A stretch of DNA of 64,000 nucleotides from an uncultured Clostridia bacterium (GCA_934182605.1 CAKPRQ010000002.1:44361-108360), one strand, 5' to 3'. Positions 37,676 through 40,963 are shown, numbered from the stretch's first letter. Notes: generated by a model from the sequence alone, not told the origin. Program-made: numbers and translations.

Positions 37676-39013
37676 TTATCTAAACAAACTAAACCATTTC
37701 CAAAATACAAAACTTGCCGAATTTATGTAATTTAATTTTTTTACTCCTTCTTCAGCAACTAATGAAGTTTTTCCAACTTCTTTTCCATTAAGAGTATATA
37801 CTACTTCACCAAGTTTTTGACCTTTATTAATAGGAGCATTAACTTTCATATCTAACATAATTTCTTGCTCTATTTTAGCTTCTTCGCCTTTTTTAACCAA
37901 ACTTCTTGCATCATTTTCATATATTACATTTACAGTATCTAATACTCCTTTTTCAACATTTATAGAATTCACTATTTCTCCTTTTTTAGCAAATTGCTTA
38001 TAAGTGTAAGTACTAAATCCGTAATCTAGAAGTTGTTTTGCTTCTGCAAATCTAACCTTACTATTTTCCGCTTTTAATATTACACCAATTAAATTAAATC
38101 CATCTCTAGTAGCAGAAGCAGATAAATTATATAATGCAAGTGATGTTGAACCTGTTTTTAATCCTGTTGCACCATTATATGTTTTTATTAATTTATTAGT
38201 ATTTACTAGTTGTGATTTCCCATCCCTTAATGTATCCATCCAAATAGTAGTGTATTTAGTTATATCAGGATGTTTAGATAATAATTCCCTAGACATCAGA
38301 GCAATATCATAAGCACTAGTTAAGTGCCCTTCTGTATCTAATCCGTGGGCATTTTTAAAAGTAGTATCATTCATACCTAATTCTTTTGCTCTTTCATTCA
38401 TTTTTTGAACAAAAGCTTCTTCAGATCCTGCTAAATGTTCGGCCATTGCTATAACACAATCATTAGCACTTACTACACAAATTGCTTTCAACATTTCATC
38501 AACAGTTAATTCTTCACTTTCATCTAACCAAATTTGTGAACCTCCCATATTGCTGGCATTTGCACTACACGAAATTTTATCTGTATATTTTAACTGTCCA
38601 CTATCTATTGCTTCCATAATTAAAAGAATTGTCATTACTTTAGTAACACTAGCAGGTCTTAGTTTTTCGTGAGAATTATGTTCGTATAAAACAGTTCCAG
38701 TATCTTGGTCAATTAGAACAGCTGCTCCACAAGTTAAATTTAAAAAATTACCTGTTTGGTCTGCTGTTGTTGGTAATGTATTTACTTTTGAACTTTCTCC
38801 TCCTATATTTGCACTTGTTTCTACTGTTTTGGTATCATCTGACCATACGTAAAGTGAATCGTCATACGCGTATACTTTTGTTTGTACAATACTTAATATT
38901 ATTGTTGAAAATATTACTAGAATTATAGTTATACTGCTTATTTTTGATATTTTTTTATTGTATTTGCTTAATGAAATATCTTTCTTATTATCTAATTTTT
39001 TATTTGAAAACAT
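37676..39013 (-). CDS. dacB: D-alanyl-D-alanine carboxypeptidase (PBP5/DacB-type, S11 peptidase) with an N-terminal membrane anchor
   Basis: SXXK (SVTKVMT), SXN and KTG motifs are present. The preferred start is the ATG at 39013, with SD AGGAGGA 6 nt upstream. The track starts 18 nt earlier, at 39031. Confidence 0.75.
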   Translation of the reverse strand: MFSNKKLDNKKDISLSKYNKKISKISSITIILVIFSTIILSIVQTKVYAYDDSLYVWSDDTKTVETSANIGGESSKVNTLPTTADQTGNFLNLTCGAAVLIDQDTGTVLYEHNSHEKLRPASVTKVMTILLIMEAIDSGQLKYTDKISCSANASNMGGSQIWLDESEELTVDEMLKAICVVSANDCVIAMAEHLAGSEEAFVQKMNERAKELGMNDTTFKNAHGLDTEGHLTSAYDIALMSRELLSKHPDITKYTTIWMDTLRDGKSQLVNTNKLIKTYNGATGLKTGSTSLALYNLSASATRDGFNLIGVILKAENSKVRFAEAKQLLDYGFSTYTYKQFAKKGEIVNSINVEKGVLDTVNVIYENDARSLVKKGEEAKIEQEIMLDMKVNAPINKGQKLGEVVYTLNGKEVGKTSLVAEEGVKKLNYINSASFVFWKWFSLFR

Positions 39014-39072
39014 AAAAAATCCTCCTAACATAAGTTATTTAATTTTATGTTAGGAAGATTAATTTTAGTACT
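39005..39072. repeat. direct repeat copy 1 (~60 bp), containing an RBS-sequestering hairpin across the dacB SD and start
   Basis: AACATAAAAAATCCTCCTAACATAAGTTATTTAATTTTATGTTAGGAAGATTAATTTTAGTAC. Stem TCCTAACATAA/TTATGTTAGGA. The anti-SD CCTCCT pairs with AGGAAG. Confidence 0.55.
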
Positions 39073-39165
39073 ATTCTTATATCTTGTTTTTGATTCTAAT
39101 ATTCTTCTTTATCATTACGAACTCAATTAGCTTCTTTATGTCAAGCTTCAAGTTTGCATAATTTT

Positions 39166-39687
39166 TCAACACCATTTTTCACCATGAACAAATTTAATCA
39201 TTCCCATGACAAAAGCCTCTTCTATCAAATCGCTCCTGCTAAAAGCACCTTTTGTAAGTAATTGAACACCTTTTTGCATTGTATTATCACCAAAAATATC
39301 TTTCATAACAGATTCTACATCATCATTAACAATATCTTCAATATATCTTTCTGGTATTGGAAAACTTGAAGACACACTAAAACTTTGTATCCCTTTATTA
39401 TTTTCTATTAAAGCCATACTTAATACTTGCCATTCTCCTAACTGATTACTAATTCCTGATTCTATTGCTAAATATAAATCCACACACACTTCATTTTCTT
39501 TACAATATTTTTTCAAATTTGAAATTCTATTTTTTACACCTTTATAAATTTCTTCATTTATAGGTTGTTCCGAAACTTCTGATGAGATATTTATGCCTAT
39601 GACTTCAACATCTTCGAAATAATGTAATAACGCTCTTTTTGCACTTTCAATTTTCACTTTATTATTTGTTGCTATAACAGCTTTCAT
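39166..39687 (-). CDS. DUF84/YjjX-family inosine/xanthosine triphosphatase (non-canonical purine NTP phosphatase)
   Basis: 173 aa. The pattern MKAVIATNNKVKIESAKRAL...VEVIGINISSEVSEQP matches DUF84 proteins. Confidence 0.55.
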   Translation of the reverse strand: MKAVIATNNKVKIESAKRALLHYFEDVEVIGINISSEVSEQPINEEIYKGVKNRISNLKKYCKENEVCVDLYLAIESGISNQLGEWQVLSMALIENNKGIQSFSVSSSFPIPERYIEDIVNDDVESVMKDIFGDNTMQKGVQLLTKGAFSRSDLIEEAFVMGMIKFVHGEKWC

Positions 39688-39846
39688 TAATACCTTCCAC
39701 CTTCTTCGATTAATATTATAACATCTTTAATAAATTTAATCTATATTTTTCCATTAATTACTTGAAGCACACCTAATCTTTTAGTAGGATTATTTGTTAC
39801 ACAAGTAATTAAGGTAATTCTGTTATCAAATATTTTACTAATCTTA

Positions 39847-40461
39847 TCATTTTCCATTATTATTCAAAACATCTATAATTTCTTCTGTTGTTATCGGCCC
39901 ATGACGTAAAATTTTTATTTCTTCTGATGTACAATCTATAATTGTACTAGCCTTATTAAACGATACATTCCCTTCTAACATTCCATCTAAATCTGGAAAT
40001 GACATTTCAATTTCGTCTAAAGTTTTACAAGTTGTTTCCCCGCTTCTATTAGCACTACTCATAAAAATTGGACTTTCCGTCTTTCTAATTAAATCCTCAA
40101 GTATTTTTGAAGTAGCCATTCTGATTGCAAGTGTCGCTCCTCCATTATTAATATATGTGGGGATATCTGCTTTTTTTATTAAAATTAAAGTAATAGGACC
40201 GGGCATAAAAGCCTGAATTAACTTTTCAGCCTTTTTATTTACTATTGCAATACTTTTTATTTGTTCTTCATCTGCACACATAATTGGCAACAATTTCGTA
40301 ATAGGGCGATTTTTGAATTTCATTAACTTGCTATATGCCTTTGATGAATTCATTCTAGCACATACACCATAAACAGTGTCGGTGGGAACACTAATCACAC
40401 CATCTTTTTTTAGTATTTCTGCTAATTCATTAATTTCATTTTTGGTATATCTTTTTACCAT
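39847..40461 (-). CDS. tsaC: L-threonylcarbamoyladenylate synthase (YrdC/TsaC family)
   Basis: YrdC-domain motifs (VISVPTDTVYGVCA; K..P..LLP..; SSANRSGE). 204 aa. Confidence 0.7.
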   Translation of the reverse strand: MVKRYTKNEINELAEILKKDGVISVPTDTVYGVCARMNSSKAYSKLMKFKNRPITKLLPIMCADEEQIKSIAIVNKKAEKLIQAFMPGPITLILIKKADIPTYINNGGATLAIRMATSKILEDLIRKTESPIFMSSANRSGETTCKTLDEIEMSFPDLDGMLEGNVSFNKASTIIDCTSEEIKILRHGPITTEEIIDVLNNNGK

Positions 40462-40578
40462 ATCTCATTCCTCTTTCCTTATTTATTATACCTCAAAATT
40501 TAAAATAATTCAAGTGTATTTGATTTATGTAAATTTATATGATATAATATATTTGAACTTTTTCAAGGAGAGGATTCA

Positions 40579-40920
40579 ATGAATATTAAAATCTTAAGTT
40601 CTTTGAAAAATGTGGCTAATGAACGGAGCACTACTATAACCATCGGCACTCATAACGGTATCTTTCATTCGGATGAGGTGCTTGCCTGTGCTATTCTGTG
40701 TTTAACTTATTCCAAAGCAACTATACATATACTGCGGTCACGAGATAATGAAATACTCCAGCACTGCAATATAGACTATATCTTCAAATCATTTGACGAT
40801 TCTATTATCGTTCCAATTGATTGTGAGGATAATGGAGTTACAGTAGAAAATCACACTTTTAGTTTCATTTCTTCTTTTTTACCTTTGTGGTTTAACAATA
40901 TTTTTTGTTATCTAACATAA
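40579..40920 (+). pseudogene. N-terminal fragment of a MYG1/UPF0160-family metal-dependent hydrolase gene. It is truncated after about 80 conserved residues, and its GC content (about 40%) is higher than that of the flanks.
   Basis: IGTHNGIFHSDEVLACAIL...LRSRDNEIL...CNIDYI matches the MYG1 N-terminal motif (GTHxGxFHxDEALA). The remaining ~230 aa of the family are absent, and the tail has diverged. Confidence 0.5.
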
Positions 40921-40963
40921 AAAATCCTCCTAACATACTTATTTAAGTTTATGTTGGAGAATT
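40904..40963. repeat. direct repeat copy 2 of the dacB-leader hairpin element
   Basis: AACATAAAAAATCCTCCTAACATACTTATTTAAGTTTATGTTGGAGAATTTTTTTAGTAC. It is about 85% identical to copy 1 and retains the SD and ATG, but a stop codon follows after only 8 codons. Confidence 0.5.

Follow-up and report, generated by a model that had tools for sequence, protein, structure and literature searches.

A conserved hairpin at the dacB start of uncultured gut Clostridia: a candidate terminator overlapping promoter and ribosome-binding site, with a second copy stranded by insertion

The DNA analysed here, a 64,000-nt stretch from an uncultured Clostridia bacterium (GCA_934182605.1 CAKPRQ010000002.1:44361-108360; hereafter the window, with all positions counted from its first letter), contains a dacB-like gene for an S11 D-Ala-D-Ala carboxypeptidase whose start region is present in two copies. 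dacB, a TraG-like gene, tsaC and a gene for a DUF84 nucleoside triphosphatase (NTPase) are all encoded on the minus strand, and a fragment of MYG1 on the plus strand. Each copy of the start region can fold into a hairpin that includes a Shine-Dalgarno (SD) sequence; the first belongs to dacB, and the second is followed by only a short open reading frame (ORF). The locus is laid out as follows.

37676-39013, minus strand: dacB-like S11 D-Ala-D-Ala carboxypeptidase, 445 amino acids (Pfam Peptidase_S11, 4.7e-71, and PBP5_C)
38995-39072, minus strand: copy 1, the functional dacB expression module (promoter-like motif, hairpin, SD, ATG, six codons), recognized from the repeat pair and its place before the S11 ORF
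39073-40899, minus strand: inserted segment of 1,827 bp with DUF84, tsaC and the MYG1 pseudogene fragment (comparison with relatives)
39166-39687, minus strand: DUF84 NTPase
39847-40461, minus strand: tsaC
40579-40920, plus strand: MYG1 pseudogene fragment, covering Pfam profile positions 1-45 of 318 only
40892-40918, minus strand: 8-codon relic ORF (MLDNKKYC, stop), its first 19 nt from dacB and the remainder antisense MYG1
40900-40974, minus strand: copy 2, a stranded relic of the ancestral dacB module beside the TraG-like gene (continuous alignment with a sister species)
40919-40968, minus strand: copy 2 hairpin (arms 40950-40968 and 40919-40937), lying between A7 and U6 runs
40991-43312, minus strand: TraG-D_C-like gene, 773 amino acids (weak Pfam match, 1.4e-5)

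Every score of the dacB product against NCBIfam DD-carboxypeptidase models fell under the equivalog cut-off, and the TraG-like protein had no NCBIfam match and no sequence match in the PDB. Copy 1 is located 93 nt past the DUF84 stop codon; copy 2 adjoins the end of the MYG1 fragment and lies 17 nt beyond the TraG-like stop (40991). The true dacB start is the ATG at 39011-39013, with the SD AGGAGGA at 39020-39026; an ATG at 39031 proposed by ORF listing falls within the hairpin stem.

A repeat search of the window recovered the two copies as a 51-nt direct repeat (38995-39045 and 40900-40950) with a spacing of 1905 nt, which self-blastn extended to 38995-39072 versus 40900-40974 with 82% identity over 78 nt. 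Gapped global alignment of the 62-nt leaders gave 87% identity. The repeat runs from AGTACT (39072 / 40974) to 19 nt inside the coding region (38995 / 40900). Its 19-nt core AAAAAATCCTCCTAACATA occurs exactly twice in the 64 kb, where 0.07 occurrences are expected, and none of 100 shuffles had three or more matches; no third copy of the dacB unit was found in the window. Two possible extensions, upstream (common AAAGAAGAATA) and deeper into dacB (TTAGATAAYAARAAA), were dropped, each having p ~0.2 against dinucleotide shuffles. A scan of public metagenomes with TATGTTAGGAGGATTTTTT returned 28 loci, of which 26 were chance matches in unrelated contexts and two belong to the dacB element: L094, carrying copy 1 with dacB, and L110, carrying the TraG-like gene, copy 2, the MYG1 fragment, tsaC and DUF84.

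Folding of the dacB-sense RNA gave stable hairpins in both copies, with arms at 39045-39060 / 39018-39033 in copy 1 (-19.3 kcal/mol, z -5.3) and at 40950-40968 / 40919-40937 in copy 2 (-17.6 kcal/mol, z -4.1). Antisense folds were weaker than sense in both copies (-13.9 kcal/mol for copy 2). In both hairpins the SD is contained in the 3' arm, with GGAGG/CUUCC pairing at the base of the stem, and U6 follows directly after it. The original prediction, that two direct repeats 1.9 kb apart each form a hairpin around the SD AGGAGGA, that the first is the dacB leader and that the second keeps SD and ATG ahead of an 8-codon ORF, was thus borne out by repeat search, blastn and folding, with coordinates that had been drawn slightly narrow. 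The dacB leader is the most structured SD-occluding leader among the window's 58 genes (z -6.4). The second most structured leader, at 17147-17240 (minus strand) upstream of the gene at 16397-17146, is unrelated to it in sequence: it forms a 24-bp perfect hairpin (-27.9 kcal/mol, z -5.2) whose flanks pair with that gene's SD. The elements of copy 1 are listed below; the boxes are putative, and A2 denotes a MAFFT alignment of 25 leaders.

39064-39070, minus strand: putative -35 box TACTAAA (sigmaE/K-type, ZHATAXX-like), the best bipartite match and the most upstream conserved block of A2
39045-39060, minus strand: 5' arm (anti-SD) AAUCUUCCUAACAUAA, from folding; fills the putative promoter spacer
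39042-39049, minus strand: putative -10 box CATAAAAT, occupying the loop and the top of the 5' arm (hairpin apex), with ATA columns invariant in A2
39018-39033, minus strand: 3' arm UUAUGUUAGGAGGAUU, from folding, containing the SD AGGAGGA (39020-39026)
39011-39019, minus strand: U6 run (39014-39019) then the dacB ATG (39011-39013); SD-to-start spacer and terminator-type U-tract

We then compared 80 dacB loci from uncultured gut Clostridia of the 'Clostridium sp. CAG:273/245/780' type, folding positions -80 to +6 of each leader. At least four of the five SD bases were paired in 55 of 78 leaders, and 33 of all 78 paired the SD with z < -2. The stem sequences differ by lineage and fall into at least 10 classes. 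When the arms were exchanged between species in silico, cognate halves folded with a mean of -15.9 kcal/mol versus -8.9 for non-cognate halves, and the cognate 5' half ranked 1-4 of 30 in 26 of the 30 cases. In an alignment derived from R1, a covariance model of the dacB hairpin, 93.2% of cells pair, compared to 80.1% after shuffling and 41-67% with the partner slid, and double changes were seen at 12 of 12 pairs, which none of 500 shuffles reached; this alignment was fitted to R1 and contains some antisense and non-dacB rows. G-U pairs make up 61 of 568 in the hairpin set. Of the two strands, the sense strand gives the more stable fold in 29 of 30 species (mean -4.2 kcal/mol, Wilcoxon p = 5e-6), a comparison that is biased because the hairpin set was picked by sense-strand folding. 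An earlier attempt with MAFFT and RNAalifold on the A2 leaders yielded no consensus structure, the alignment being out of structural register, and was replaced by the arm-swap folding and the covariance-model alignment. These results show a selected RNA structure: ahead of their dacB orthologues, about 30 uncultured gut Clostridia have kept the hairpin, with covariation in its stem. An Rfam search gave no match at gathering thresholds (best E-value 1.9, with E up to 10 inspected).

The A2 alignment, which is unbiased, has ATA columns that do not vary at the apex of the hairpin, and a conserved block immediately 5' of it. The mother-cell promoter pattern is ZHATAXX-14-CATACAHT, with a consensus spacer of 14, and dacB of B. 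subtilis is sigmaE-dependent. In the window, the motif TACTAAA-14-CATAAAAT lies 28 nt before the ATG and matches this sigmaE/K pattern at 13 of 15 positions. The same bipartite motif is found at the same position in most of 77 orthologous leaders, with 13-14-nt spacing and at a fixed distance from the ATG in hairpin and hairpin-less species alike; among the 70 leaders scoring at least 12 of 15, there are 50 whose -10 element ends at a distance of 24-32 nt upstream of the ATG, both hairpin-bearing and hairpin-less ones. The entire motif is enclosed by the hairpin arms in L068 and L080. It has been reported that sigmaE and sigmaK of C. difficile share a common CATA-type -10 box and differ in the -35 element, ATA for sigmaE and AC for sigmaK (PMC3789822), and the dacB motif agrees with these published elements. 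Relatives carry spoIVA, spoVS and spoVT. A mother-cell-type (sigmaE/K-like) promoter appears to lie within the hairpin, with a predicted transcription start at about 39034-39036. Since this start falls inside the hairpin, dacB's own mRNA would lack the anti-SD arm. Reading the upstream conserved block (TAAAAT in the window) as a sigmaA -10 box was judged weaker, the final T being missing in most species.

We also found that the presence of the hairpin goes with the genomic context. The gene upstream is co-directional in 28 of 30 hairpin loci versus 27 of 42 hairpin-less loci (Fisher p = 0.005), the 28 cases being phylogenetically related, so that the Fisher tests overstate their independence. 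In the hairpin loci this upstream gene mostly ends 58-95 nt before the dacB ATG and is of at least six unrelated kinds (VanW-like, sortase-like, YtfJ-like, XRE, PNKP and TraG-like). Some hairpin-less loci have a separate classical terminator instead. In addition, the spacer between SD and ATG is U-rich in hairpin leaders (GGAGGAUUUUUUAUG) and A-rich in hairpin-less ones (GGAGGUAAAAAAUG): a T-run of at least 4 occurs in 22 of 31 hairpin leaders versus 11 of 46 others (p = 6e-5), and at least 10 species have an unpaired U-run directly 3' of the stem, which is the canonical terminator form. That leader hairpins can terminate upstream genes is established (reviewed in PMC7821165). Among the matches of R1 there are also plain terminators and a few further genes with the SD in a terminator-like stem; feoB-like and SleB/CwlJ-like genes at L086 16025-16084 and L075 1950-2029 (both minus strand) have their SD in a terminator-shaped hairpin followed by a U-run, and terminator/RBS overlap (RBS, ribosome-binding site) may be a recurrent solution in these compact genomes.

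The promoter-like motif in the hairpin, the co-directional upstream genes and the U-runs together favour a terminator or insulator over simple translational control. We consider it reasonably probable that the hairpin is an intrinsic terminator/insulator overlapping the dacB promoter and RBS, and that the two copies are a duplicated dacB module of which copy 2 was stranded by an insertion. The module would hold a sigmaE/K-like promoter, SD, ATG and six codons, all within a hairpin of intrinsic-terminator shape: the 5' arm would serve as the promoter spacer, the -10 box as the apex, the SD GGAGG as the G+C-rich base of the 3' arm and the SD-ATG spacer as the U-tract. A transcript from the dacB promoter would start inside the hairpin, leave the SD free and be translated, while RNA arriving from a co-directional upstream gene would contain both arms and be terminated at the U-run; read-through RNA that escaped termination would have its SD masked. 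The net effect would be to insulate dacB from upstream transcription. Copy 1 would thus end the tsaC-DUF84 transcript and start dacB, and copy 2, with its promoter spacing damaged and its hairpin and U-run kept, probably survives as the terminator of the TraG-like gene.

The history of the locus could be read from close relatives. The metagenome contigs L001-L003, of the same species, are 99.99-100% identical to the window and have both copies. In the sister species L004 (dacB 90%, TraG-like 91% identical to the window) the order is TraG-like, a 72-nt spacer with a single hairpin, and dacB, with no tsaC, DUF84 or MYG1 between. By blastn, L004 7519-10018 aligns unbroken with window 43397-40901, from the TraG-like gene through the copy 2 leader to dacB codon 6, and L004 10010-11292 aligns with window 38959-37677, the dacB body. 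The copy 1 module is common to the orthologous leaders of L004, L005 and L011, and tsaC, DUF84 and MYG1 do not stand beside dacB in L004, L005 or 80 further species. Because L004 has the TraG-like gene directly before dacB with one hairpin copy, 39073-40899 is an insertion of 1,827 bp flanked by the 78-nt repeat. By this comparison, a native segment was inserted at dacB codon 6-7 with duplication of the 78-nt module, as had been proposed initially, and copy 2 is the stranded original, comprising promoter, hairpin, SD, ATG and six dacB codons. The ORF MLDNKKYC-stop is the ancestral dacB N-terminus fused to antisense MYG1; its MLDNKK resembles the L004 DacB N-terminus MSDNKKISK. The DacB N-terminus is variable at 38959-39010 (dacB codons 2-18), where a 15-nt unit (FSNKK|LDNKK) has been gained or lost and a 10-codon insert makes a further difference from L004; the region is low-complexity, lysine-rich and slippage-prone.

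On the other side of the insertion, homology of MYG1 to L090 stops exactly at 40899|40900, where copy 2 starts. L090, which has the closest tsaC relative (81%), retains the C-terminal half of MYG1, which was not found elsewhere in the window; its MYG1 and tsaC are divergent and it has no DUF84. Of MYG1, the window keeps about 80 N-terminal codons and a short internal piece and L090 (264-761) only the C-terminal 165 amino acids, which suggests that the gene is being lost in this lineage, with decay differing between the two. Both copies share derived characters relative to L004 and L005 (U6 rather than U7; CC in the anti-SD), they have diverged from each other (87%) about as much as from sister leaders (86-90%), and the 98% identical strain L110 has the same layout as the window; the duplication was thus intragenomic but not recent. 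Campbell-type integration of a circle, or duplication followed by deletion, are candidate routes. In copy 2, two bases have been lost from the 5' arm, leaving a promoter spacer of 12 nt instead of 14, and the stable hairpin, A7 and U6 are kept. No other terminator-like structure follows the TraG-like gene or, on the opposite strand, the MYG1 remnant, which may explain why copy 2 has been retained; its hairpin is probably a bidirectional terminator for both.

The surroundings of dacB have been rearranged in other ways, and dacB is located in a rearrangement hot spot. In L005 (9942-11632, compared to L004 9928-11293) the dacB module, leader and gene together, has undergone an in-place inversion with respect to the TraG-like gene, with a 65-amino-acid zinc-ribbon-like ORF added downstream of the inverted module, and synteny downstream of dacB differs between the window and L004. 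L110 4480-5164 (OIYV01004761.1) leaves the window arrangement inside the copy 1 5' arm (..AATCTT|AATCTTATTAATAAG); beyond the breakpoint lie a truncated polC 5' fragment and apt on the other strand, and dacB with the rest of the hairpin is on the separate contig L094 of the same assembly. Either the assembly is chimeric at the hairpin, or this strain has a genuine rearrangement.

Another repeat family is found in the window, consisting of abundant, strongly self-complementary intergenic elements of 110-165 nt.

6060-6226, 9146-9310, 37565-37675, 43407-43547, 49914-50056, 60142-60282: copies of the palindromic element
7754-7797, 28433-28642, 44963-45163: weaker copies
L005 about 9640-9760: a further copy

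These elements have a mean column identity of 74%, fold at -35 to -50 kcal/mol (z -6 to -8), contain a conserved apical core and have no Rfam match. They flank the TraG-like/dacB block, one upstream of the TraG-like gene and one right after the dacB stop, and another lies beside the inverted dacB in L005; the family may be of the miniature inverted-repeat transposable element (MITE) or repetitive extragenic palindrome (REP) kind and a driver of local rearrangements. The dacB repeat unit is without similarity to it. Positions 37104-37304, inside or next to the FGE-sulfatase-like gene, are 75% identical over 200 nt to positions 17302-17502, and the match may be paralogous coding sequence.

Several observations weigh against an insulating terminator, besides the two statistical limits given above. 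The promoter motif, A+T-rich in a 27% G+C genome, has weak significance for single sequences (shuffle p ~0.15 for the window), a terminator/promoter scanner run on the window gave fewer promoter matches than the shuffle expectation, and the promoter assignment, transcription start and termination are all predictions from sequence. The loops of 11-13 nt (3-8 nt in a typical terminator) and the A/U-rich stems are unlike those of efficient terminators, and a consensus terminator scanner with a loop limit of 8 nt called neither copy. L005/L010 keep a perfect hairpin despite a divergent upstream gene 471 nt away, and L087 is another example. A separate terminator (GAAGACCAA..TTGGCCTTCTTTT), absent from the window, belongs to the TraG-like gene in L004 and L005 and makes the dacB hairpin redundant there. 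Finally, the 78-bp flanking duplication has no simple one-step mechanism. The main alternative is the translational-control hairpin first proposed, in which the promoter lies upstream and the structure, in the dacB 5' untranslated region, sequesters the SD and spacer and represses or tunes translation until opened by temperature, protein, small RNA or ribosome standby; it might also stabilise the mRNA 5' end, and copy 2 would still be a duplication relic. The SD is indeed wholly paired in a stable, conserved stem, with covariation and G-U pairs on the sense strand, in the most SD-occluding leader of the window; the hairpin persists in L005/L010 and L087 with no co-directional upstream gene, and the block 5' of it can be read as a -10 box. 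However, most species do not have the final T of a sigmaA box in that block, and no conservation is seen 17 nt upstream; the apex box (C/A)ATAnAnT, at the same ATG distance in hairpin-less species, is unexplained by a model based on RNA alone, the link with close co-directional upstream genes and U-runs is not predicted by it, and in intergenic spacers of 58-75 nt a promoter could hardly be accommodated ahead of the 5' arm. Of the control hairpin as initially proposed, the pairing of the SD in a stable stem stood; its classic regulatory role is possible but doubtful. We hold it slightly less likely still that the hairpin is an undescribed, widely conserved cis-regulatory RNA in the 5' untranslated region of sporulation-type DD-carboxypeptidase mRNAs whose SD is locked until a trans factor or condition opens it. 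Such a translational switch, if true, would justify an RNA family of its own, its covarying members numbering about 30.

The repeats themselves could also have been produced by mobile DNA, as ends or attachment (att) sites of an element, or as a target-site duplication of a transposase or integrase, with the TraG-like gene marking a conjugative element. A discrete 1.8-kb insert between direct repeats, an adjoining TraG-D_C-like gene, the local inversion of dacB in L005 and the departure of L110 inside copy 1 all speak for this, but we regard it as very improbable. The cargo is only tsaC, the DUF84 NTPase and a MYG1 pseudogene; no recombinase was found among the encoded genes by Pfam and NCBIfam profile searches, no terminal inverted repeats of the insert were found, and its G+C of 0.29 equals that of the flanks. 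A duplication of 78 bp far exceeds those made by transposases, and the repeat is simply the dacB promoter/RBS module, single-copy in relatives. The TraG-like gene, which is 91% identical and syntenic in L004 and L005 and stands in the sister species among ftsEX, M23 peptidases and ctpB, is a conserved chromosomal neighbour of dacB there and no evidence of a mobile element. Least probable of all, in our judgement, is that the pair represents two copies of a small dispersed intergenic repeat (REP/MITE-like), for which the richness of this genome in another palindromic family, with at least six copies in the window, could be cited. The dacB unit is not similar to that family and is present just twice in the 64 kb; scanning public metagenomes for exact 19-mer matches led back to the same two contexts apart from chance matches, and significant R1 matches over 1.36 Mb of related loci were confined to dacB starts and their antisense images, bar one other gene at E = 0.003. 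The same counts dispose of a reusable regulatory cassette, an option left open by the original prediction: no further copies appeared in the window, the related loci or the metagenome scan.

The terminator/insulator that we favour resembles several known systems in part. Like intrinsic terminators, the dacB hairpin is a stem-loop whose base is G+C-rich, with an A-run to the 5' side and a U-run directly 3' of the stem; it is found 17-110 nt beyond the stop codon of a co-directional gene, folds more stably in the sense RNA and is described by a covariance model that also finds ordinary terminators. Unlike them, it has a loop of 11-13 nt and an A/U-rich stem, its G+C clamp is the next gene's SD and its U-tract that gene's SD-to-ATG spacer, a promoter-like motif lies inside it, and its termination is predicted only. 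It shares with SD-sequestering hairpins and RNA thermometers (fourU, ROSE) an anti-SD (CUUCC/CUUUC, with G-U wobbles) that pairs with AGGAGG and a conservation of structure rather than sequence. In contrast to these, its predicted start inside the hairpin means that the native mRNA may lack the anti-SD arm, it has no Rfam match, and its presence depends on the orientation of the upstream gene, which SD-sequestering leaders do not require. The motif TACTAAA-14-CATAAAAT, 28 nt before the ATG, is like mother-cell sporulation promoters, but is known from sequence alone and is A+T-rich in a 27% G+C genome. As in riboswitch and attenuator platforms with the SD in the 3' arm of a terminator, a single structure can block both transcription and translation; the dacB leader, of about 62 nt, differs in having no aptamer, no alternative antiterminator and no Rfam match.

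Current understanding is not overturned by these findings; a terminator/leader hairpin and a segmental-duplication relic are both known kinds. The locus is a clean, dated case of a native-gene insertion that left a functional-looking orphaned start region, a type of relic by which gene prediction and motif searches can be led astray. In annotating uncultured Clostridia, dacB starts can be marked by the covarying hairpin together with the conserved promoter motif. Taken together, the results indicate how, in a very compact and A+T-rich genome, about 60 nt can accommodate a terminator together with a cell-type-specific promoter and an RBS, and that a single structure could doubly block read-through expression of a cell-wall enzyme that is maybe needed only in sporulation.

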